Positions 16 to 12,896 of a stretch of DNA of 12,896 nt are shown here, one piece after another. How positions within the stretch are numbered: position 1 is the stretch's first letter; every line of letters starts with the position of its first letter. Origin of the DNA: Patescibacteria group bacterium (GTDB taxonomy: Bacteria; Patescibacteriota; Minisyncoccia; Minisyncoccales; DG-74-3); the NCBI GenBank assembly GCA_018813025.1, contig JAHJCL010000038.1, forward strand, positions 1 to 12,896, given 5' to 3'. Position numbers and translations under genes: made by a program. The notes under the pieces were generated by a model. It was given only the letters and a program-made list of their open reading frames with translations. It had not been told where the DNA came from and made no database searches.

Positions 16-285
16 ATGTTAACACCTGAAGAAAAAATTAAAGTTATTGAAAAGTGTAAATTACACAAAGTTGATACTGGTTCTCCCGAAGTCCAGGTTG
101 CTTTATTGACCGAAGAAATTAAACGTCTTTTGCTTCATCTGAAACAACATAAAAAAGATCTCCACTCCAAGAGAGGACTTTTAAAAATGGTTACCAAGAG
201 AAGATCTCTTTTAAATTATGTTAAAAATGAAGACCCAAAAAGATATAATAGTGTTATTAAAAAAATCGGTTTAAGTGCTAAATAA
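16..285 (+). CDS. rpsO: 30S ribosomal protein S15
   Basis: The 89-aa ORF carries the hallmark S15 motifs [30 protein letters not shown] and RRSLLNYV. The length is typical for S15. The stop TAA (283-285) shares its last A with the ATG of the next gene. Confidence 0.95.
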
Positions 286-794
286 TGATTACTGCCAAAC
301 ATCAAGACCAAAGAGTAGCTGTTCTCATAGATGTCCAAAATCTATATCATTCAGCTAAAAATCTCTATAAAGCGAGAGTTAATTTCCGAGCTATTGTCAA
401 AACAGCTGTTGAAGACAGAAAACTGATTCGAGCTTTTGCTTATGTTATTAAAACTAAAACAGGAGAAGAAAAGCCTTTTTTTGAGGCTTTAACTAATTTA
501 GGAATTGAAACACGAGTCAAAGACCTTCAAGAATTCTATGGTGGAATGAAAAAAGGTGATTGGGATGTTGGTATTACCGTTGACGCTGTCAGAATAGCGC
601 CATCGGTTGATACTATTGTATTAGCTTCAGGAGATGGCGACTTCATCCAACTGGTTGAGTATTTAAAAAACCAAGGTAAGAGAGTAGAGGCAATTTCTTT
701 TGCCCGATCATCCTCGGCCAAATTAAAAGAGGTTGTTGATGAATTTGTTGACCTAGAAAAAAATCTTAAAAAATATCTTATTAAAAGCTACTAA
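285..794 (+). CDS. NYN/LabA-like (DUF88) PIN-fold putative ribonuclease
   Basis: The 169-aa ORF has the N-terminal motif RVAVLIDVQNLYHS and the central ASGDGDF acidic cluster typical of NYN/LabA-like domains. Its start overlaps the rpsO stop (TAATG) and it ends 1 nt before the pnp ATG, so translational coupling is likely. Confidence 0.8.
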   Translation: MITAKHQDQRVAVLIDVQNLYHSAKNLYKARVNFRAIVKTAVEDRKLIRAFAYVIKTKTGEEKPFFEALTNLGIETRVKDLQEFYGGMKKGDWDVGITVDAVRIAPSVDTIVLASGDGDFIQLVEYLKNQGKRVEAISFARSSSAKLKEVVDEFVDLEKNLKKYLIKSY

Positions 795-2907: not shown

Positions 2908-3870
2908 ATGATTGAAGAAAAAATAACAAAAAAAAATGAGGAGTTAACTCATTTTAGAAGAGAAGATATTAAAACGATGCGAAAAGACATCGCTGTTGCC
3001 AGAGAAAAAGAAGCTCGAATAGAAAGAGAAAAAATAGCTCGATCTAATCACCAGCAGCCATTAAAGCAAGAAGTCAAAGATGTTAGCGTAAAACCGCCAG
3101 ATAAACTGCCAATAAAACAATCAACTGACCAGAAATTGCCTCAAGTTTCAAAAAAAATACGCTCTTCAAAAAAGATTTTAGTTCGAGTATTGATTGTTCT
3201 TATTTGTCTTTCTTGTATTACCTTAATCTTTCTATTAATAAAACTTCCTTGGGACAAAATAGAAGAAAACCAAACTGAAGTAATAGAAAAAGAAATACCA
3301 ATAGAATTTATTACCCCAGCTTCTTTAGTTACAGTTCAAAGCACTATTATTTCTGAAATTAACGAAAAACAGGAAACAGTAAATATTTTAGAACAAACAC
3401 TTAATCAGGAAGTTAATCAGAATAGTTTGAACCAGATTGTCTTAAAATATGTTCCGGAAAACCGAGTTCTTTCCTTAGAAGAAATTCCTTTAATTACTGT
3501 CTTCGGAACTGAATTATTGCCGGATATTTATCCTAAATTAGAAAAAGACCATACCTTGGTTCTTTACTCTCAAAGCCAGGGATTAAGAGCGGTTTTTATT
3601 GGTAAGGTCAAAGAAGACCAAGACTTAATTGCTCTCTTTGAGGATTGGGAAGCAGAAATAATAAAAAATGGAATTGTAATTAATCAAGAAAATATGCAAC
3701 CATTAACTCCATATTTCAGATATTATTTTTATAAAGATATTAGACTGCGCTATTTAACTTTATCCAGAAATGATTTAGGAATATGTTATGCTTATTTTGG
3801 AAATTATTTCGTTATCTCTTCTTCTATGGAGAGTTTTCGAAAAGTAATTGATAATATTCAACTAAAATAA
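2908..3870 (+). CDS. hypothetical single-pass membrane protein (charged N-terminal region, one TM helix, ~200-aa C-terminal domain)
   Basis: The 320-aa ORF starts 6 nt after the pnp stop on the same strand. It has a Lys/Glu/Arg-rich N-terminus and a TM segment (VRVLIVLICLSCITLIFLLIKL). The C-terminal domain is globular-looking and AT-rich in codon usage like its neighbours. No recognisable family. Confidence 0.6.
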   Translation: MIEEKITKKNEELTHFRREDIKTMRKDIAVAREKEARIEREKIARSNHQQPLKQEVKDVSVKPPDKLPIKQSTDQKLPQVSKKIRSSKKILVRVLIVLICLSCITLIFLLIKLPWDKIEENQTEVIEKEIPIEFITPASLVTVQSTIISEINEKQETVNILEQTLNQEVNQNSLNQIVLKYVPENRVLSLEEIPLITVFGTELLPDIYPKLEKDHTLVLYSQSQGLRAVFIGKVKEDQDLIALFEDWEAEIIKNGIVINQENMQPLTPYFRYYFYKDIRLRYLTLSRNDLGICYAYFGNYFVISSSMESFRKVIDNIQLK

Positions 3871-4372: not shown

Positions 4373-4528
4373 ATGGCTAATGAACTCACGAATATTGAAT
4401 ACAAGGTTGATGAAATAAAAAAGACTGTTGAAGAATTAAGAGATGTGATAAAGAACTATAAATATACTTTAGACGAGATGAAAGAGGGGATAAAAAACAT
4501 AAAATACACGCTTGATAACCGAAAGTAA
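4373..4528 (+). CDS. possible 51-aa micro-protein with an internal tandem repeat
   Basis: Read by eye from ATG 4373 to TAA 4526-4528 as MANELTNIEYKVDEIKKTVEELRDVIKNYKYTLDEMKEGIKNIKYTLDNRK. It contains a duplicated IKN(Y/I)KYTLD unit. It was not in the ORF track, presumably for length. No SD. It is directly followed by a hairpin plus T-run terminator. Confidence 0.3.
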   Translation: MANELTNIEYKVDEIKKTVEELRDVIKNYKYTLDEMKEGIKNIKYTLDNRK

Positions 4529-4608: not shown

Positions 4609-5697
4609 TTAATGTGCAAAAGGGTTAGTAGCTCCGGTGACTCCAAAATGTAAGTGGCAGCCAGTTGATAATCCAGCGCCAGCCGTGCCGGGCTGACCTC
4701 CCATTAACCCGATAATTTGATACCTGGATACTTCTTGACCTGGAACAACAAAAATTTTAGATAAATGCCCGTAATAAGTAATAACTCCATTTGGATGTAA
4801 AATTGTAATGTGATTGCCGCCTCCGCCAAAAGCCCAAATAGATGTTGATGTAGTTGTCTGTGCTTTTATAACTGTTCCTGCTGCCGCAGCGTAAATTGAT
4901 TCGCCACAACCTCCATTGTTACTGAAATCAATTGCGTTATACCAATGTAACCCCTGGGTTATATATGGAACGTCGATTGGATAAACAAAATATCCTGAAG
5001 CTAAAGGAACAGATTGAGGTTGATAGTTAGAAACTGGAGCAGGCATAGTCCCATCAGGAATCATTAAAATATCTCCTAAAAATATATCTCCTTCTGAGGA
5101 CAACTCATTAAAAGCTATAATATCTGATGTTTTGGCTTTATGTATTTGGGCAATATTAGAAATTGTGTCTCCGTTTTGAACATGGTATATAACTCCGGAA
5201 ACAGGTGGAATGACCAATGTTTTGCCAATAGTTATAATTGTATTTTTATTTAAATCATTGGCCCAAAGTAAACTTTCAATTGAAACATTAAATTGTTGAG
5301 AAATGTTTGATAATGTGTCGCCTGATTCAACAACGTATTCAATAATACCTCTCCTGGTGCTGGGTAAAAAATCTATACCCACTAAAGCCCCTAAAACCTG
5401 CGGCGAAAGAGTAGTCGGTGGTAAAGATGCTTTTAATGTATTCTTTTGGATTAAAACAAGGTCTGGAGATTCTACGGAAAACTTGTTAATTGGTCCCAAA
5501 AAGAGATCATTGGTATTTTGAGATTGAAAATCGCTTACCTCTGTAGTAATTGGGTTTTGAGCTGAAATAATTAATGCTGAAACAAATAAAACAACAGTCA
5601 TTGCTGACAAAAACCAAAAAAGGTTTTCTTTAAGAAAACCAGCGAATTTAATATTTATTTCTTTACTCGACAAATCAATTTTTTTCTTTCTACCCAT
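4609..5697 (-). CDS. LysM-LysM-M23 family peptidoglycan peptidase (membrane-anchored)
   Basis: The ORF is 362 aa with an N-terminal TM helix (LFWFLSAMTVVLFVSALIISA). Two LysM domains are present (YVVESGDTLSNISQQF... and YHVQNGDTISNIAQIH...). The C-terminal M23/LytM fold retains the HLHF (HxH) motif. The first metal-ligand motif is atypical: GLHWYNAIDF rather than a clean HxxxD. Confidence 0.85.
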   Translation of the reverse strand: MGRKKKIDLSSKEINIKFAGFLKENLFWFLSAMTVVLFVSALIISAQNPITTEVSDFQSQNTNDLFLGPINKFSVESPDLVLIQKNTLKASLPPTTLSPQVLGALVGIDFLPSTRRGIIEYVVESGDTLSNISQQFNVSIESLLWANDLNKNTIITIGKTLVIPPVSGVIYHVQNGDTISNIAQIHKAKTSDIIAFNELSSEGDIFLGDILMIPDGTMPAPVSNYQPQSVPLASGYFVYPIDVPYITQGLHWYNAIDFSNNGGCGESIYAAAAGTVIKAQTTTSTSIWAFGGGGNHITILHPNGVITYYGHLSKIFVVPGQEVSRYQIIGLMGGQPGTAGAGLSTGCHLHFGVTGATNPFAH

Positions 5698-5825: not shown

Positions 5826-5906
5826 ATGAAACGGATTATTTTCAGAAAATATTTTTTAATTGGTTTAATCTTTGGATTTTTATTGTGCGGACAGTTTGTT
5901 TTGGCT
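5826..5906 (+). other. Sec-type signal peptide of the 818-aa protein
   Basis: The N-terminus is positively charged (KR..RK) and the hydrophobic core is LIGLIFGFLL. A VLA|C cleavage-like site follows. Confidence 0.55.
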
Positions 5907-8282
5907 TGCGAGGAAGGCAGCGTACAGGAATGCGGAGATTGCGGTTTGGAATATTGTGATAATTGCCAAATAAATCCAGAGACAGAAGAGGAAATATGTG
6001 ATTGGAGTGGTCTTTGTGAAGAACCACCCAAACCAGATACAGAGCAAACTATTAACTGGGAAGAGTATCGCTGCCAAGGAGAAGAAAATAAATGTGGAGA
6101 ACAATATATCGAAACAACAATATGGAATCAAGACCAAACAAGAAACGTTACTTGTGAAGTCCACGGAACTTGGACAACCGGTAATTGGAGTGATTCTGGA
6201 GACCCCTATTATGATTCACCCTTTATAAGTGAATATTGTGATTTAGATTGGCAACTTTGTTCCGGAGGCACTGAATGGACAGAAATACTATCGGAACGCC
6301 AGTGTTCCTGTGCCGGACAATGTTTAGATATTCCAGCCAATCCAAGGTATTACGATAACCCTAATTATCCGATTAACCCATATAACCCGGAAGTTTCGAA
6401 AGATTCTAATAATATTTTTCTTCCGGTTAAATTAGATTGGGATGATGTCCAATATTGGCAGACCTCTCCAGATGGCCCCAAGTCATATAAAACTACAGTA
6501 AAGAGTACAACCAAGGGTGACTATTCAAAAGTGTCAACTCAATCTGAATATAATTATACCCAAGATCCAAATGGTGGTGTTTGTTTATTGAAATCAAATT
6601 TTACTCACCAATGGCAAGTTCAGGCCTGTTGTGGAGCAGATGGAAGTAACTGCGGATCTCAAAGTAATTGGAGTTTTACTACTAATTCTGCTCCGGAACC
6701 AGTTACGCCAGCTGATCCAGATTGGAAAAATGAAGAAGGAATTGCTCAAAATGTTGGAATACCGGTAGTTTTAGATTGGTGCGATGTTAATATTGCCAAC
6801 TCATATATTATCCAAATTTATAAAGATAGCGAACTCCGCCATGTCACTGGAGTAAAAAAGATTAATGGTGTCCTTACTTCCTCAATTGAAATTAAAAACT
6901 TTGAAGTTTTTACAGGGTTAACAAATTATAGTTGGGAAGTTTCTAGTTGTTTTAATGAAAATGGTACTGGATGTGCAGATTTCAGTCAGAAATGGAGTTT
7001 TAAAACGCAAGAAATGGAAATAACTCCTCCGAAACTTCTCGAGCCATTTTATAATCCGAATAAACCAAATGAAATTCCATTTGTAAATTTATCTAATTCC
7101 CTAGAATGGCAGCGAACCGAGAATGAAGGCTTATGGGCGCGTTCTTATTATTTTGAAATAAAAAAGGGGAATGAAATCATTGTTCCATCCACTCTTACTA
7201 CTCAATACATCGTTCCTTTCGTTGATATTTGGAATTCTTTAGAATTAAATGAAGCTTATAATTGGCATGTAAAATCTTGTTATAGTGAAGATGGAACCGA
7301 TTGCAGTAATTTTGGCGATTCCTGGTATTTTAAAACAACTGGAGCGAAACCTATTCTTAATTATCCGAATAATAACGCCAACGATATTCTGATTCCGGTT
7401 AACTTTGATTGGCAAGATGTTTCTGGAGCTGCCTCCTATATATATGAAATTGCTATTGATTCTGGGTTTACCAATATTGTTATCCCTGAAGCGCAAAGAG
7501 TAGTAGAAAAATCTGAGGTCTTAGCAGATTATCCCTTTTTAAAAATGCTTACTGACTACTGGTGGAGAGTGAAAACTTGTGCCGATAAAGAGGGAAATAT
7601 CTGTGGAGATTGGGCTACTCCTCAAAATTTTAAAACTTTTAAATTAGAAACTCCCACTAATCCTTCTCCTGAAAATGGAACAGACTTTAATACTTCTGAT
7701 AATTATCTCTCCTGGGACCCTGTTTTAGGGGGGAAATTTTATCAATATAGAATTTATTACGGGGGAGTAGAAAAAATTCCTCCGACTATAGTTTCTACGA
7801 ATTCTGCTTTCCTCTCTACCGGACAACTAGAATTAGGAAGCCATAGCTGGTATGTTCGATCCTGCTTAGATAAAGATTGCCAAGAAACCGGAGACTGGGC
7901 CGGTCCCTGGTCTTTTAACCTTGTCCAACCGACACCTATTGGTAAAGCAGGATTTGTTCCTTGTGGAGGGATAATTGATTATCCTGAAACTCCTTGGAAC
8001 GAAAGAGAACAATGCGGAATTCAACATATTTTCATAATGCTTAAAAATATTCTTGATTTTCTTTTATGGAGATTAAGTTTACTTGTCTTGGTTTCACTAA
8101 CTATACTTACCGCCGTAATATTTTATTTCTCACTGGGATCAACGAATACGATTATTAATATAAAATCAATTTGGAAATCAGCTGGAATCGGCTACGGAAT
8201 TATTTTCTTCGCCTGGATATTTATAAATCTGATTCTAAAATTCCTTGGTTATACAGTTGATTGGTGGATAATTACTTTTTAA
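5826..8282 (+). CDS. giant cysteine-rich secreted protein: signal peptide + Cys-knot cap + 5 FN3-like Cys-pair repeats + C-terminal VirB2/TrbC-like (CPR-type) T4SS pilin domain
   Basis: The ORF is 818 aa. The N-terminal signal peptide is MKRIIFRKYFLIGLIFGFLLCGQFVLA. About 15 Cys fall in the next ~160 aa. Five ~95-110-aa repeats follow, each starting LDW.DV..A.SY.I.IY and ending Y.W.V..C-x(4-6)-C-x(3-5)-W-x-F-x-T. The C-terminus reads VPCGG...C..QHIFIMLKNILDFLL with two TM helices separated by a short loop. This matches the small pilin family that I recall being annotated as TrbC/VirB2-type in CPR genomes (recalled from memory; not searched). Confidence 0.75.
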   Translation: MKRIIFRKYFLIGLIFGFLLCGQFVLACEEGSVQECGDCGLEYCDNCQINPETEEEICDWSGLCEEPPKPDTEQTINWEEYRCQGEENKCGEQYIETTIWNQDQTRNVTCEVHGTWTTGNWSDSGDPYYDSPFISEYCDLDWQLCSGGTEWTEILSERQCSCAGQCLDIPANPRYYDNPNYPINPYNPEVSKDSNNIFLPVKLDWDDVQYWQTSPDGPKSYKTTVKSTTKGDYSKVSTQSEYNYTQDPNGGVCLLKSNFTHQWQVQACCGADGSNCGSQSNWSFTTNSAPEPVTPADPDWKNEEGIAQNVGIPVVLDWCDVNIANSYIIQIYKDSELRHVTGVKKINGVLTSSIEIKNFEVFTGLTNYSWEVSSCFNENGTGCADFSQKWSFKTQEMEITPPKLLEPFYNPNKPNEIPFVNLSNSLEWQRTENEGLWARSYYFEIKKGNEIIVPSTLTTQYIVPFVDIWNSLELNEAYNWHVKSCYSEDGTDCSNFGDSWYFKTTGAKPILNYPNNNANDILIPVNFDWQDVSGAASYIYEIAIDSGFTNIVIPEAQRVVEKSEVLADYPFLKMLTDYWWRVKTCADKEGNICGDWATPQNFKTFKLETPTNPSPENGTDFNTSDNYLSWDPVLGGKFYQYRIYYGGVEKIPPTIVSTNSAFLSTGQLELGSHSWYVRSCLDKDCQETGDWAGPWSFNLVQPTPIGKAGFVPCGGIIDYPETPWNEREQCGIQHIFIMLKNILDFLLWRLSLLVLVSLTILTAVIFYFSLGSTNTIINIKSIWKSAGIGYGIIFFAWIFINLILKFLGYTVDWWIITF
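6387..7922 (+). repeat. five tandem, divergent FN3-like protein-coding repeats (about 6387-6683, 6693-7007, 7008-7337, 7338-7637, 7638-7922)
   Basis: The repeat ends are anchored in-frame on WSFTT (6669-6683), WSFKT (6993-7007), WYFKT (7323-7337), NFKT (7626-7637) and WSFNL (7908-7922). Conserved W, Y and C positions recur at the same relative places. The repeats are divergent at the DNA level. Confidence 0.65.
7923..8282 (+). other. VirB2/TrbC-like pilin domain (two TM helices ~8058-8135 and ~8187-8255) at the C-terminus of the 818-aa protein
   Basis: The domain has the motif GFVPCGGIIDYPETPWNEREQCGIQHIFIML. Two hydrophobic helices follow (LLWRLSLLVLVSLTILTAVIFYFSL and IGYGIIFFAWIFINLILKFLGY) with a short polar loop between them. 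This matches the topology and motifs of T4SS pilins. Confidence 0.55.
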
Positions 8283-8324: not shown

Positions 8325-10772
8325 ATGCTTTTTGAAAATAAACCAAGTTTGTTTTTAAAATATAAAAATAGTTTGATATTGTTTTTTAAAAACAAAAGAA
8401 TTTTGATCTTAACAATGGTAGTAGGATTAATTTTGTCTTTCTTACCTCTCCATTCTGTTGAAGCAGCTTGCAGTGCGTCACCTTTAGATTGGCCGCAGTG
8501 TATTGTAGACTTTGCGCTTTATTTACCCTCTCTCCCTCTGAGAATCGGTTTTGCTATTTTTATTATCCCTCTTATTCTTGCTGCTATTGGCGGTGGTCTT
8601 CTCTATTCTGTAATAGTAGCTGTCTGTAATTGGATGATGTCAATTTTTCTACAAGTAGGAATAACTCCAGCCAACTCGATCCCCGCCGGTCTTCCGGGGG
8701 CTACACCTCAAATAGTAACAATAGGATGGACTTTTACTAGAGATTTCGTTAATATGTTTTTTATTTTAATTCTGGTCTTTATAGGATTGGCTACTATTTT
8801 AAGAATAAAAGAATATGAAGCTAAAAAACTCTTACCAAAACTTATTGGTCTGGCTTTATTAATCAATTTCACTCCGGTAGTTGTAGGATTCATCGTTGAT
8901 ATGGGGAATATTGTCACTTCTTTTTTCTTGAATGCGGCTGGAAAAATAATAAATCTTTCAACAGTTTTAGATATGGCATTTGATTATGCATTAACATCAA
9001 TGGGAGTTATTTTTGGTCAGGGTGATTTTTTAACTATGATTGGCCAGTTTGCTGGGATAGTTATTTATGGAATTGTATTAACAGTTTTCTATTTATGGGG
9101 CTCATGGATATACGCATGGATAATGCTCTCTTTTGTATTCAGAATCACGGAACTTTGGGTATTGATGATTTTATGTCCTATTGCTTTTTTCTCTAACATC
9201 TTTCCACCTTCTAATACAATTAGAATGCTTTTTCCTGGTATTTTGCATTGGAAAAAATGGTGGGAAGAATTTTTACGATGGATAATTTGGGCTATACCAA
9301 TTGGTTTTTTCCTTTATCTCTCTAATTGGGTAATGGCAAACACAAGTGTAGTTCAAGGTATTTTTGATAACACTACTCTCATAGATGGATTAAATGTTGC
9401 GACGGAAGGATCTACTCAATTTCCAGCACTCGAGGGTGGTTTTATTACTCTTATCACATCCCTTCTTACTCCAACCCTTGCTTTAATTTTATTAGATAAA
9501 GGATATAAAATCGCTAAACAAACTGCACCAGAAGCAGCCAAGGGAATATTAGAAGGAACAGAAAAATTAGGAAAATTAGCTATAGCAGCTGGTATTACTG
9601 CCGCAACAGCCGGCGCTGGAGCAGGGTTGGCTGGTGGAATGTTAGGGAAAGCCGGAGTCGCGGCTACAAGACTAGAAACCTTTGCTGGTAAGGGTAGATT
9701 GGGTATAGCCGGTAAGGCTTTAGTATCTCCATTGACTAAACCTATTAAGATGTTTGAGAGAATTGCTGCTCCTCCACTTTTAAAATATGCGGCTAAAACA
9801 AGGGAGGGTATAAAAATACCGGAAGAATTCAAAAACCTATCGCCAGATGAACAAGCGATTATAGTACGAACGGCCCTAACAAAGGAAGCCAAGCTTAAAC
9901 GTATCGCTAAGATGGTAGAACTAAAAACTTACGATAAGGTTACTGACAAAAATTTCTTAAATGAAACTCAAAAAATAGCTGATAAACTTTCGGATGATCC
10001 TCGTTACAGCAAAGATGCAAGATCTGTAAAAGATAAAGCGCCCAATACGATATCAGAAGAAGGAATAATAAAAATGAAATTGGTTGGAAAAATAACAGAA
10101 GAAGAAAGAGAAGAAGTTAAAAAAACAGTAAAGAAAGAAATAAACCGAATATCGGAGGATTTGAAAAATGACGATACGTTTAAATTGGAAATTGATTCAC
10201 ATGCAAAAATAAATAAAACTACATTCGAACAAGCCTCAAGAGATATTGCCGCTGGAGCAATTTATACTAAAGAAATGAAAGGAGAAGATTGGTCAAAGAT
10301 AACAAAAAATTCGTCCAAATCTTTAGCCGTAAGAACAGGTGCTTTATATTCTGATGGAAGAAAACTTAGTAAAGCAGCGGATAATTTTGGACCAGAATTC
10401 GTTGATAATTTTATGGAAGAAGTTGCAAAGAAAGGACCTGAGTGGCTTGCGGAAAATAATAGTGCTGGGCTTCTTTATCTTTGTGGCAATGCTGCTCAAG
10501 ACCTCGGCTATACTCCTCCAGAAGGTATAGACAAAGAAAAGGCAAGAAAAATGATAGAAAATGCAAGAAAAGAAAAGATAGAAAATAGAAAGAATACCCG
10601 TACGAACACTAAAGAAGAAAAAGAACAAAAAAAATTAGATGATTGGATGCCTCAAGGAAGACAAGGTGCAACCGGAACACCAACGAAAAAAACAAAACAA
10701 CCTTCAGAAGGTCAGAGTACGATGGAAAAGCCCGAAAAAGAAAAAAGGCCTCCAGGACGGCCAGGTATTTAA
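8325..10772 (+). CDS. VirB6/TrbL-like polytopic membrane protein with long charged C-terminal extension
   Basis: The ORF is 815 aa. An alternative start at Met30 (nt 8412) would give a clean signal peptide, MVVGLILSFLPLHSVEA|ACSASPLDWPQC. About 8 predicted TM helices span aa ~60-390. A Gly/Ala-rich linker follows (AAGITAATAGAGAGLAGGMLGKAGVAATR, nt ~9578-9720, locally GC-rich). A ~400-aa Lys/Glu-rich hydrophilic tail ends PPGRPGI. The gene sits directly downstream of the pilin-domain gene. The family assignment is by architecture only. Confidence 0.5.
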   Translation: MLFENKPSLFLKYKNSLILFFKNKRILILTMVVGLILSFLPLHSVEAACSASPLDWPQCIVDFALYLPSLPLRIGFAIFIIPLILAAIGGGLLYSVIVAVCNWMMSIFLQVGITPANSIPAGLPGATPQIVTIGWTFTRDFVNMFFILILVFIGLATILRIKEYEAKKLLPKLIGLALLINFTPVVVGFIVDMGNIVTSFFLNAAGKIINLSTVLDMAFDYALTSMGVIFGQGDFLTMIGQFAGIVIYGIVLTVFYLWGSWIYAWIMLSFVFRITELWVLMILCPIAFFSNIFPPSNTIRMLFPGILHWKKWWEEFLRWIIWAIPIGFFLYLSNWVMANTSVVQGIFDNTTLIDGLNVATEGSTQFPALEGGFITLITSLLTPTLALILLDKGYKIAKQTAPEAAKGILEGTEKLGKLAIAAGITAATAGAGAGLAGGMLGKAGVAATRLETFAGKGRLGIAGKALVSPLTKPIKMFERIAAPPLLKYAAKTREGIKIPEEFKNLSPDEQAIIVRTALTKEAKLKRIAKMVELKTYDKVTDKNFLNETQKIADKLSDDPRYSKDARSVKDKAPNTISEEGIIKMKLVGKITEEEREEVKKTVKKEINRISEDLKNDDTFKLEIDSHAKINKTTFEQASRDIAAGAIYTKEMKGEDWSKITKNSSKSLAVRTGALYSDGRKLSKAADNFGPEFVDNFMEEVAKKGPEWLAENNSAGLLYLCGNAAQDLGYTPPEGIDKEKARKMIENARKEKIENRKNTRTNTKEEKEQKKLDDWMPQGRQGATGTPTKKTKQPSEGQSTMEKPEKEKRPPGRPGI

Positions 10773-10806: not shown

Positions 10807-12051
10807 TTATTTTTTTCGTTTCTTTTTAGACTCGGACAACTTTAGTCTTTTAATATCTTCTTTTAGTTTTTGGATTTCTTCTGGTAAGATATCGTTTGGT
10901 GACTTCCCGAAGATTCCTTTTAATGCCTCTGAAAGTCCTGGTATTGCCTGAACCGTCATACTAGCTGCCAGCGGACTCTTCTCCATCGCCTCTAAGGTCC
11001 TGACCAATTTTCCTAAATCGCCATAGTGTTTAATCTGCTCAAAAATTATTCCCATCCTCTTTGCCTCTCCTTCGGCCTTAAGAATCGTCGCCTTTCTTTC
11101 GCCTGCCGCCTCTGTTTCTGTTTTATATTTTGTTGCTTTTGCTGTTACTTTTGTCGCTTCAGCTGTTTCACTAGCAGTATATCTTAGTAAAGTCGTCTTT
11201 AGAAACTCCTCTGGAGGATCTATTTGTCTGATTTCAATCGCTTTTACTTCTACACCATATTGATCAATGAATTCTCCTCTCTCACCTTCTGCCATCAATA
11301 TTCCATCCTCTTGTTCGTATTGACCGACCAGTTTTGATTTCTTCATTTCTTCCCACATTTCTCCTCCGACCGTCTGTATTACCGCTCCTAAATCAGTGTA
11401 TGATATTTTTGCAATGTATTGCCGTATAATAGGCTGCATCCGATTTATAATCGTCTCAAGCCAATTTTGGACAGCGAATCTAGCCTTATAAGGATTAACC
11501 ACTCTGATTGTAAGGTAAATTTGTATTTCTAAAGGTAAAAGGTTTTTGTCTTCTGCTTCGGCTATCTTAGTGAAATAAACATCGTCCTTGAGAAGCATAT
11601 AGTCAAGCCATTCATGTTTCTTATTTATTGTTCCGCTTTCGTCTACACCAGTCCATCGAAATTTGTATATATGAAGATCCCAGAGTGGCCAAAGACCATA
11701 GAAGCACAATCCACCGAACCTATGCTTTTCTTTGCCTTTTATAACGTTCCATTTTTCCGGATGCTGTTTTTGGTAGTCAAAAGTATAGCCTTCCCACCGA
11801 ATCAAACATTTATCGAATTTGTCTCCCTTTACAACAAATTTTACAGTACTTTCTTTCACAAAAGTGAAAAAACAGTTGTTTGGGGCTAAAACAAAATAGA
11901 TAATTAAGAAAGCGGCTATCGGGATAAAGATAATTGACCAGATAATATATGTAGAGATTGACATTGGTATTACTATTCCTAAGAGATACGGTAGAAATCC
12001 TATGATTACAACAATAGCTATCGTCCTTATCATATTTAAACTTCTTGTCAC
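10807..12051 (-). CDS. SPFH/Band-7 (stomatin/prohibitin/flotillin-like) membrane protein
   Basis: The ORF is 414 aa. N-terminal TM helices are present (IAIVVIIGFLPYLLGIVI and IIFIPIAAFLIIYFVLA). The SPFH core carries the motifs IEIRQIDPPEEF and TASETAEATKV...ILKAEGEAKR. The C-terminal tail is Lys-rich. The start is GTG (12049-12051), preceded by AGGAG (12060-12064 on -) with an 8-nt spacer. Confidence 0.75.
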   Translation of the reverse strand: MTRSLNMIRTIAIVVIIGFLPYLLGIVIPMSISTYIIWSIIFIPIAAFLIIYFVLAPNNCFFTFVKESTVKFVVKGDKFDKCLIRWEGYTFDYQKQHPEKWNVIKGKEKHRFGGLCFYGLWPLWDLHIYKFRWTGVDESGTINKKHEWLDYMLLKDDVYFTKIAEAEDKNLLPLEIQIYLTIRVVNPYKARFAVQNWLETIINRMQPIIRQYIAKISYTDLGAVIQTVGGEMWEEMKKSKLVGQYEQEDGILMAEGERGEFIDQYGVEVKAIEIRQIDPPEEFLKTTLLRYTASETAEATKVTAKATKYKTETEAAGERKATILKAEGEAKRMGIIFEQIKHYGDLGKLVRTLEAMEKSPLAASMTVQAIPGLSEALKGIFGKSPNDILPEEIQKLKEDIKRLKLSESKKKRKK

Positions 12052-12181: not shown

Positions 12182-12607
12182 ATGCTGGACAAATATACAA
12201 AAGAACAATTTTGGAAACTTTACGAAAAAATTTCTCAGGAATTAAAAGAAACAATTTTTTCCGAAGAAACTGCGAATAATATCTTGGATATTTGCTTAAG
12301 AAACGGCGTTGAAGATGAAAGAGTTTCCGAGGTAGCCAGGTATACAGGTAGGGTTTTGATGGGAATTTTAGAGCCAACTGATTTTCAAGAAACATTGGAA
12401 AAAGAATTAAAAATGGAAAAAAATACGGCTAAAAAAATCAGTCAGGGAATTAATCGTTTTATTTTCTATCCCGTAAAACCGGCTCTTGAAGAATTATATA
12501 AAACAGAGATAATGCCAATTGCAAAGCCGAATGGAAGTGCTCCGCTACCTATAGAGAAAGCAGATACCTCTTCGTTAAAGGATGTTTATAGGGAAGCAAT
12601 TGAATGA
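12182..12607 (+). CDS. hypothetical protein (141 aa, soluble)
   Basis: The ORF has coding-like composition and diverges from the SPFH promoter region. Its stop TGA overlaps the next ATG (ATGA). No family recognised. Confidence 0.5.
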   Translation: MLDKYTKEQFWKLYEKISQELKETIFSEETANNILDICLRNGVEDERVSEVARYTGRVLMGILEPTDFQETLEKELKMEKNTAKKISQGINRFIFYPVKPALEELYKTEIMPIAKPNGSAPLPIEKADTSSLKDVYREAIE

Positions 12608-12846
12608 AAAATTTTAAATCCATCCAAGATTTACCGGAACAAAAAAGAAAAATAATTCTTTGGACAATAATGGTTTTAACAGGATTAAGCTTATTGATTA
12701 TTTATATAAAGGGTGCTCGAGAAAAAATAGAAAATCTTGAAATAGAAAAATTTAAAGAGGAAATACAATTACAATCTCTTGAAGAAGAACTTGGAAATTT
12801 ACTAAAAATAGAAATACCAAATATACAACAAGAGATACAAGAGTAA
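12604..12846 (+). CDS. hypothetical small membrane-anchored coiled-coil protein (80 aa)
   Basis: It is translationally coupled to the upstream ORF through a 4-nt overlap. It has a TM helix (ILWTIMVLTGLSLLIIYI) followed by an EIEKFKEEIQLQSLEEELGNLLKIEI coiled-coil-like segment. Confidence 0.45.
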   Translation: MKNFKSIQDLPEQKRKIILWTIMVLTGLSLLIIYIKGAREKIENLEIEKFKEEIQLQSLEEELGNLLKIEIPNIQQEIQE

Positions 12847-12896
12847 GCATATAATATTTGCGATTCATATATTATAATAGATTAATTATTATGAAA

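Follow-up and report, generated by a model that had tools for sequence, protein, structure and literature searches.

A large part of bacterial diversity belongs to the Patescibacteria, which live attached to other cells. In the only species tested genetically, Ca. Southlakia epibionticum, the type IV secretion system (T4SS) and its array of short VirB2-like pilins are essential for epibiotic growth (PMC10633639; PMC12857230). Pilins of this class (PF18895), such as those of the six-gene array SEML1_0014-0019 of that species, are about 120–185 amino acids (aa) long and consist of a signal peptide and two helices; the T4SS cluster is origin-proximal, lies near rpsO, and encodes VirB6-like, PrgI/VirB3, and VirB4 proteins (PMC12102498, PMC10633639). 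Here, we analyze a gene at positions 5826–8282 (plus strand) of a 12,896-nucleotide (nt) stretch of DNA, hereafter the window, from an ultra-small Patescibacteria bacterium. The gene encodes an exported protein of 818 aa, which has a signal peptide, two helices in a C-terminal module homologous to the PF18895 pilins, and the same type of T4SS cluster around it. Unlike the described pilins, the 818-aa protein has ~700 aa of ectodomain inserted after the signal peptide and ahead of the pilin module, and the module adds an invariant juxtamembrane motif (VPCG...TPWNE...C...H) and scores below the family cut-off.

Two other groups of pilins are comparable. The classical pilins VirB2, TrbC, and TraA (PF04956; Agrobacterium T-pilus, F-pilus) share with the 818-aa protein two long hydrophobic helices connected by a short loop, a Sec leader, and the T4SS context. 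The 818-aa protein differs from them in the lack of a direct sequence match, the monoderm organism, and the very large N-terminal extension, and there is no evidence of cyclization or acetylation. The modular type IV pilins (S. sanguinis PilB and PilC, CofB of enterotoxigenic Escherichia coli, and many examples from the candidate phyla radiation (CPR)) resemble the 818-aa protein in joining a small carrier through a short linker to bulky domains, including fibronectin type III (FN3; IPR003961) domains. In these proteins an adhesive module is grafted onto a pilin carrier and modelled at the tip, where they are thought to mediate adhesion (PMC8179133). Type IV pilins are an unrelated filament family, with an N-terminal class III leader, a single α1 helix, and the extra module at the C-terminus, whereas the 818-aa protein has a C-terminal VirB2-type hairpin and its extra domains at the N-terminus. 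The literature searched describes Patescibacterial pilins only as short pilins and arrays, and the modular-pilin concept only for type IV pili. We found no published description of an FN3–VirB2-like pilin fusion; most subscription journals were outside the literature covered, so this absence is not proof.

Architecture of the 818-aa protein

The protein, read from an ATG start in the list of open reading frames (ORFs) and their translations, is composed of a signal peptide, a head of ~143 aa with 15 cysteines, five FN3-like β-sandwiches, and a C-terminal two-helix hydrophobic hairpin. The extent of the gene (5826–8282, stop codon included) is supported by the ORF list, the translation, identical copies, and homologues. 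Hydropathy analysis identifies three hydrophobic segments, the signal peptide (aa 3–30) and the two segments of the hairpin (aa 735–773 and 785–811). In accordance, an AlphaFold2 model built on a 32-sequence alignment (mean pLDDT 84.5) is all-β over aa 33–700 and ends in two long helices, 732–768 and 773–806 (37 and 34 aa). There are 31 cysteines in total, 15 of them within aa 28–166; pairs elsewhere include 375/383, 485/493, 585/593, 680/685, and 713/730, and almost all of the cysteines are conserved in the 32 aligned relatives. A homology search with the protein returns 61 homologues with E values down to 0 and, since 6250 cluster representatives also match its C-terminal module at E ≤ 1e-3, the architecture is far beyond chance.

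The Sec-type signal peptide (aa 1–27; 5826–5906) consists of MKRIIFRK and a hydrophobic core, and is probably cleaved after aa 27, between FVLA and the following cysteine. The assignment follows from the hydrophobic segment and from an N-terminal layout kept in the alignment. A lipoprotein reading was considered and rejected, as the cysteine after the leader is not conserved among the aligned relatives. A type IV pilin reading was rejected as well: no class III leader motif is present in the sequence, the N-terminus is an ordinary Sec-type leader, and the hydrophobic carrier is C-terminal. NCBIfam gave no meaningful match for the protein, for the C-terminus alone, or for the neighbouring proteins, and tRNA and Rfam scans of the whole window returned no matches.

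The head (aa 28–170; 5907–6335) is delimited by its 15 cysteines and is β-rich, with strands predicted by AlphaFold2 at pLDDT ~70–90. No other part of the protein is so weakly conserved or differs so much in length: the mean identity is 38.8%, and relatives have heads of 78–207 aa. A linker rich in Pro, Asn, and Tyr follows (aa 171–195; 6336–6410; NPRYYDNPNYPINPYNPE..., with the alignment consensus NPRYYNNPNYPT); it has no regular secondary structure in the AlphaFold2 model.

The stalk is formed by five domains, each delimited by AlphaFold2 strands, the repeat alignment, and Foldseek matches: domain 1 (aa 196–288; 6411–6689; Cys 253, 268, 269, and 276), domain 2 (aa 289–396; 6690–7013; Cys 319 and the pair 375/383), domain 3 (aa 397–506; 7014–7343; pair 485/493), domain 4 (aa 507–607; 7344–7646; pair 585/593), and domain 5 (aa 608–702; 7647–7931; pair 680/685). 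The cysteines of domain 2 are kept in 97–100% of relatives, and conservation also supports domains 3 and 5. The five repeats are 21–32% identical to each other and share the motif Y-x-W-x-V-x-x-C...C...W-x-F-K-T. The pLDDT is mostly above 85 over aa 196–700. Foldseek returns 416 matches in the PDB at E ≤ 1e-3, and the leading ones are tandem FN3 arrays (gp130-family receptors, fibronectin FN7–10, contactins, and LAR), with E values of 1e-13 to 1e-9 for the top matches to fibronectin FN7–10, gp130, and contactin. The family PF25788 (Ig_Rha78A_N) matches aa 531–607, within domain 4, below its cut-off (E = 0.008; 16.9 bits against 27.4), and is found in 11 of 32 relatives (best E 3.6e-7). The module-bearing relative P0089 exceeds the cut-off with 35.3 bits. 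Because the fold matches are FN3 arrays and PF25788 is above threshold in relatives, the five repeats are assigned, on the strength of the predicted model, as FN3-type β-sandwiches.

In the model, the first cysteine of each pair ends a strand (e.g., strand 367–375) and W-x-F-K-T forms the next strand (390–394), which fits a predicted disulfide staple between the F strand and the FG loop. All 32 aligned orthologues have five FN3 domains and a stalk of near-constant length. Together with the variable head, this fits a fixed-length spacer that carries a diversifying recognition end.

Most of this layout had been recognized in a preliminary description of the DNA. The ORF with its Cys-rich cap, five repeats, and C-terminal hairpin is present as described, both quoted strings (VPCGG...C...QHIFIML and FFAWIFINLIL) are in the translation, and AlphaFold2 and Foldseek agree with the expectation that the repeats fold as FN3 β-sandwiches. 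A cysteine pair precedes W-x-F-K-T in each repeat, as proposed; the proposed uniform spacing of C-x(4-6)-C does not hold, as the spacing is CC-x6-C in repeat 1 (268/269/276), C-x7-C in repeats 2–4, and C-x4-C in repeat 5 (680/685).

The C-terminal module and its family

The module begins with the juxtamembrane motif (aa 703–734; 7932–8027), which was defined by alignment and reads G-F-V-P-C713-G ... T722-P-W724-N-E726 ... C730 ... H734. No stretch of the protein is better conserved than this segment (59.8% mean pairwise identity), and P712, C713, T722, W724, E726, C730, and H734 are invariant in 32 of 32 relatives. In compact form the motif is VPCG-x(8)-TPWNE-x3-C-x3-H; a histidine at the start of helix 1 is also retained in short pilins of the "C-x2-C-H" type. 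Helix 1 (TM1, aa 735–768; 8028–8129) was located by hydropathy and corresponds to helix 732–768 of the AlphaFold2 model and to helix 27–64 of a separate model of the module (pLDDT 85.4). A short loop, seen by hydropathy, AlphaFold2, and alignment (aa 769–784; 8130–8177), contains the invariant G771 and two lysines and is probably cytoplasmic. Helix 2 (TM2, aa 785–811), assigned by hydropathy and by the AlphaFold2 helix 773–806, is followed by a short exposed tail (aa 812–818) and the stop codon (8178–8282 in all). G789, W797, and G808 are invariant in the alignment which, with G771 and the juxtamembrane residues, makes 11 invariant positions in the module. Among orthologues, the mean identity is 53–60% for the motif and helices versus 38–45% for the ectodomain.

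The module matches PF18895 (T4SS_pilin) over aa 750–803, corresponding to profile positions 19–71 of 71. The whole protein scores 15.4 bits (E 0.02); restricting the query to the last 127 aa raises this to 18.9 bits (E 0.0016). The same family is matched by 11 of 32 orthologues at E < 0.01 (best 3.6e-6), and three relatives with the same module are above the cut-off (P0079, 27.0 bits; P0083, 27.5; P0089, 26.7). PF04956 (TrbC/VirB2) gives a weak match in one of the 32 orthologues (E 0.0055). A comparison of the module with the neighbouring short pilin by pairwise BLASTP is not significant (E 1.7), so that profile methods are needed. By hhalign, the module profile aligns with 25 short pilins, homologues of the pilin adjacent to VirB4 in the locus, with 89% probability (E 2.2e-6), and the aligned region includes the loop between the helices. 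The same genome encodes a 244-aa paralogue with a PF18895 domain, to which the hidden Markov model (HMM) of the module aligns along its full length of 116 positions (78.6 bits); the paralogue itself scores 34.1 bits against PF18895 and gives a weak match to PF04956 (E 0.0069).

Structural comparison is less informative. The module profile finds no pilin among all PDB sequences, only one chance match (E 0.49), and the module model superimposes on T-pilus VirB2 with 2.8 Å over 60 columns, at E = 5–8 among generic hairpins, which is not significant. The profile evidence firmly places the module, at the level of the family, as a divergent domain of the PF18895 class. The literature treats this class as VirB2-like, and the kinship of the module to classical VirB2 is indirect.

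The 244-aa paralogue is a second modular pilin of the same organism, encoded ~130 nt upstream of rpsO, the first gene of the window (L003:384-1118). It comprises a signal peptide, a Cys-rich head, a run of 17 prolines, and a PF18895 domain of the "VPCG...C..CH" class, like the module of the 818-aa protein. Related genomes have a short stand-alone pilin of the same class at this place.

A profile of 20 modules was searched against 1.84 billion cluster representatives; 173 of the matching proteins have E ≤ 1e-30. Architectures were counted in the best 150 of the 6250 matches. Among these, the module is always C-terminal, the proteins are 142–1668 aa long, 132 contain homologues of the FN3 domains of the 818-aa protein, and a homologous head occurs in just 16. 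Complete proteins include a signal peptide with the module alone (142–150 aa), forms with one FN3 domain (~240–250 aa), and forms with many. The pilin-like layout of signal peptide, two long helices, and short loop is thus found both in the 818-aa protein and in the stand-alone proteins, of which P0079, P0120, and P0151 lie on contigs of 1.1–1.5 kb with uninformative context. A few distant proteins combine the module with β-helix or other domains. Some relatives are already named "pilin" by NCBI.

Two expectations of the preliminary description need qualification here. A C-terminal T4SS pilin domain is borne out at the level of the PF18895 family, and not by the score of the protein itself (18.9 bits, below 26.6) or by a match to PF04956. 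The fusion had also been presented as an oddity; its rarity was overstated, since the module occurs alone and behind one to many FN3 domains and the fusion is common. The suggested survey of relatives for short and long forms reveals both, stand-alone proteins and many FN3 fusions.

The T4SS gene cluster

The gene for the 818-aa protein is the conserved first gene of a T4SS cluster, found in about 25 genomes of the Parcubacteria/Nealsonbacteria type. A scan of GTDB species representatives identified 26 loci in metagenome-assembled genomes (MAGs) of Parcubacteria, Paceibacterota, Nealsonbacteria, and Yanofskybacteria, one complete genome included. By tblastn, the gene order is PNPase, DksA, M23/LysM (minus strand), the 818-aa-type gene, an extra pilin-domain gene in some loci, the VirB6-like gene, SPFH in some loci, orf141, PrgI, TraC-like, VirB4, a short pilin in some loci, jag, and yidC, and this order is kept in essentially every locus long enough to judge. 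VirB4, VirB3/PrgI, and VirB6-like proteins are encoded together with the 818-aa-type gene in L001, L005, L006, and ~20 further species-level loci. The layout agrees with the published description of the Patescibacterial T4SS (PMC12102498).

Forty-two nt past the stop codon of the 818-aa gene begins a gene for an 815-aa protein (8325–10772, plus strand). This membrane protein is polytopic, its C-terminal half is long, hydrophilic, and rich in Lys and Glu, and the protein has no Pfam match of its own. Among its 144 homologues, many carry a precomputed PF19590 match and two carry PF04610, and one (P0335) passes the TrbL cut-off (26.6 against 25.9 bits). On this family-level evidence, the 815-aa protein is an extended VirB6/TrbL-like protein. 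A VirB6-like gene lies downstream of the 818-aa-type gene in 26 of 29 compared loci, directly so in 10 of these, and it is also directly downstream in the window. A promoter and terminator scan, in itself weak evidence, found no convincing terminator between the two genes.

Most of the other compared loci have a further pilin-domain gene between the 818-aa-type gene and the VirB6-like gene, and clusters of this kind therefore encode three or four different pilin-domain proteins. The intervening proteins are 270–520 aa long (L005:14166-15077, L011:10895-12070, L022:10768-12126, L023:13254-14801, and others) and consist of a short-pilin-type domain with an extension, mostly C-terminal; the gene is absent from the locus of the window itself.

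Downstream of the VirB6-like gene, two small conserved genes encode proteins of 141 aa (12182–12607) and 80 aa (12604–12846) on the plus strand, noted for their position in the cluster and without Pfam or family match. The 141-aa gene immediately precedes PrgI in almost all related loci and is therefore probably an unrecognised T4SS component. A gene for an SPFH/Band-7 membrane protein lies mid-cluster on the opposite strand (10807–12051, minus strand) and is kept in some related loci only (L014, L021, L024, and L026). The window ends with the first codons of a stand-alone PF18895 pilin of 120 aa (12891–12896, plus strand). On the extended contig (L001), the pilin gene (12891–13253) is followed by those for PrgI (VirB3-like; 13321–13758), a TraC-like protein (13762–14382), and VirB4 (14388–16199). 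Beyond VirB4 lie jag, yidC, rnpA, and rpmH, and the T4SS cluster therefore adjoins the replication origin region.

On the other side, a gene for a peptidase with two LysM domains and an M23 domain (4609–5697, minus strand; Pfam LysM 5.2e-22, Peptidase_M23 1.9e-18) is divergent from the 818-aa gene and retains its position in nearly all related loci. We infer that this peptidase may serve the cluster as a cell-wall hydrolase analogous to VirB1. The T4SS of most Patescibacteria is said to lack VirB1, a role that this candidate would supply.

Further upstream, an NYN-domain gene (285–794, plus strand), for a predicted RNase, lies between rpsO (16–285) and pnp (PNPase, 796–2901), an arrangement conserved in related genomes (L005). 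After pnp comes a gene for a membrane-anchored protein of 320 aa (2908–3870, plus strand), with no family match and very weak hints to mycoplasma families associated with integrative and conjugative elements (NF046000, E 0.0019). At the corresponding place in L005, between the PNPase and DksA-like genes, is a gene for a GH3 glycosidase. A called ORF of 51 aa (4373–4528, plus strand) has only weak coiled-coil-type Pfam matches and is present in all four contigs of the source organism.

Proposed role and alternative explanations

We favor, with moderate confidence, a reading in which the 818-aa protein is a modular pilin of the VirB2 type (PF18895 class) that displays a host-contact head, either from a position docked at the T4SS or as a pilus subunit that is rare or terminal. 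The protein would be exported by Sec and its signal peptide removed. The C-terminal hairpin would insert in the membrane with both ends outside, as in VirB2 pilins, and ~700 residues would be placed outside the cell, namely a stalk of five disulfide-stapled FN3 domains, then the Pro/Asn/Tyr linker, and then the variable 15-Cys head. As one FN3 domain is ~3.5–4 nm long, the extended stalk would measure ~18–20 nm. The hairpin module would serve as a carrier that docks the protein to the VirB6-like/VirB4 machinery beside the short pilins of the locus, with which it may co-assemble. If a pilus is built, the protein would be a low-copy subunit, most plausibly incorporated first and hence located at the distal end. 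The stalk and head would be the effector, reaching beyond the cell envelope to the host cell, and we hypothesize that the protein may thereby act as a pilus-tip adhesin. The conserved module, the constant stalk, and the variable head argue for a carrier with specific contacts, a spacer of fixed length, and a diversifying distal end. An MdbA-like oxidoreductase and VKOR, for which CPR genomes show enrichment, could form extracellular disulfides (bioRxiv 10.1101/335083).

The proposed niche is analogous to that of the VirB5/TraC tip proteins and the PrgB-type adhesins, which are T4SS-encoded surface or tip components for target-cell contact. VirB5 is not present in Gram-positive-type systems according to a review (PMC12857230) and a Patescibacterial survey reports no PrgB-like adhesin (PMC12102498), so that the role of target contact is otherwise vacant. 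The analogy concerns the niche only: PrgB has an LPXTG anchor and VirB5 is soluble and helical, whereas the 818-aa protein has a pilin-type hairpin anchor. In the Pfam scan the 818-aa protein has no VirB5/TraC match, and a comparison aimed at these proteins was not made. The FimH-type tip adhesins of chaperone-usher pili have two domains, a receptor-binding head and a pilin-type one, and are incorporated as the first, distal subunit. The 818-aa protein likewise joins a head to a pilin-type domain; its fold, assembly pathway, and organisms are all different.

Several points weigh against the proposed role as a modular pilin. The protein itself misses the PF18895 gathering threshold of Pfam (26.6 bits) and has no direct match to PF04956 in the Pfam scan, and the juxtamembrane Cys/His motif is not a classical VirB2 feature. 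The 15-Cys head has no family match in the Pfam and NCBIfam scans, and neither a binding partner nor a ligand-binding fold was identified for it. A Patescibacterial T4SS pilus is not reported as observed in the literature found, and a 2025 review speaks of the "potential to elaborate conjugative pili" (PMC12857230). In addition, an N-terminal extension of ~700 aa cannot sit on every subunit of a helical filament of the VirB2 type, and incorporation would have to be sparse or terminal. Antibody mapping is said to have found the N-terminus of F-pilin accessible at the pilus tip only. If that is right, an N-terminally extended subunit would fit the distal layer only.

A bolder version of the modular-pilin reading, which we put forward tentatively and regard as rather doubtful, applies to Paceibacteria-type CPR bacteria in general. 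There, a T4SS pilus or stub of short PF18895 pilins would be capped by an 818-aa subunit that nucleates or terminates the filament. The FN3 stalk and the hypervariable, cysteine-knotted head would provide host recognition for an essential machine of episymbiosis, in place of the missing VirB5 and PrgB. VirB2-family pilins would then be modular like type IV pilins, and the series from zero to many FN3 domains would be a family of adhesins with tunable reach.

Among the alternatives, the one that survives best, though we consider it unlikely, is a plain membrane-anchored surface adhesin. The hairpin would be a mere anchor, the head would be pushed by the FN3 stalk across the wall or S-layer without any pilus, and the link to the T4SS would be regulatory or co-functional. 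A hydrophobic hairpin with a Lys-containing loop indeed resembles a membrane anchor, fold searches cannot separate the module from any helical hairpin, the constant length of five FN3 domains suits a spacer across an envelope of fixed thickness, and the unreported T4SS pilus is as expected. An anchor would not need the 11 invariant residues or a conservation above that of the ectodomain, which argues that the module does more than anchor passively. Moreover, the module is homologous to VirB4-adjacent pilins and to stand-alone proteins of pilin size, which have nothing to anchor, and the tight, conserved placement by the VirB6-like gene in the T4SS cluster argues for a physical role in the machine.

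That placement is also compatible with a part of the secretion conduit, which we judge quite improbable. Several copies would stand around or on the VirB6-like translocon, and their FN3 stalks would form a sheath or channel wall of fixed length across the wall and S-layer, replacing the missing outer-membrane core complex in a monoderm; the protein would not be an adhesin. In nearly all related loci the gene has the extended VirB6-like gene as its partner, adjacent or one pilin-domain gene away, the divergent gene for the LysM-M23 wall hydrolase adjoins it, and the stalk length is constant across orthologues. A Patescibacterial survey, furthermore, recovered almost no homologues of VirB10, the sole core-complex component that it reports on (PMC12102498). 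A distal head that is the most variable part is, however, better suited to recognition than to a channel rim, and the relatives with zero, one, or many FN3 domains carry the same module, so that stalks differ in length within the wider family.

An enzyme-associated surface protein has very little probability in our view. The FN3 or Ig_Rha78A_N-like domains would then belong to a glycan-degrading or glycan-binding protein, or to another enzyme-associated one, that is merely tethered to the membrane. The weak match to PF25788, an N-terminal Ig domain of rhamnosidase, is stronger in relatives, and the β-helix and other domains in a few distant module-bearing proteins point in the same direction. 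PF25788 is only an Ig-like accessory domain, however, no catalytic domain is found in the 818-aa protein by Pfam or NCBIfam, and the fold matches are to generic FN3 arrays. Finally, an assembly chimera or mis-called ORF in which an FN3 protein and a distinct pilin gene were merged near position 7920, raised at the outset as a possible refutation, has no point in its support and is refuted as far as sequence data allow, its probability being practically nil: 7 contigs, drawn from two MAG assemblies at NCBI (GCA_043800015.1 and GCA_018824385.1, "Patescibacteria group bacterium") and from two independent run assemblies of Logan, encode an identical protein, 60 further homologues of 25–55% identity, most of them full-length, retain the FN3-to-hairpin junction, the diverged relatives that keep this junction number over 100, and all of the 150 best module-bearing representatives have the module at the C-terminus.

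HMM screens that demand the Pfam threshold or a small size miss or mislabel proteins such as the 818-aa protein. No adhesin has been assigned to the Patescibacterial T4SS so far, and what the system touches or transports is not known (PMC12102498). Because it is encoded by the conserved first gene of the T4SS cluster, the 818-aa protein is a good candidate for host-cell contact, and a concrete one: conserved, locus-initial, and pilin-anchored, with a fixed stalk and a variable head. If the modular-pilin reading is true, the principle of the modular pilin, known from type IV pili, would also cover the VirB2 pilins, an unrelated family.

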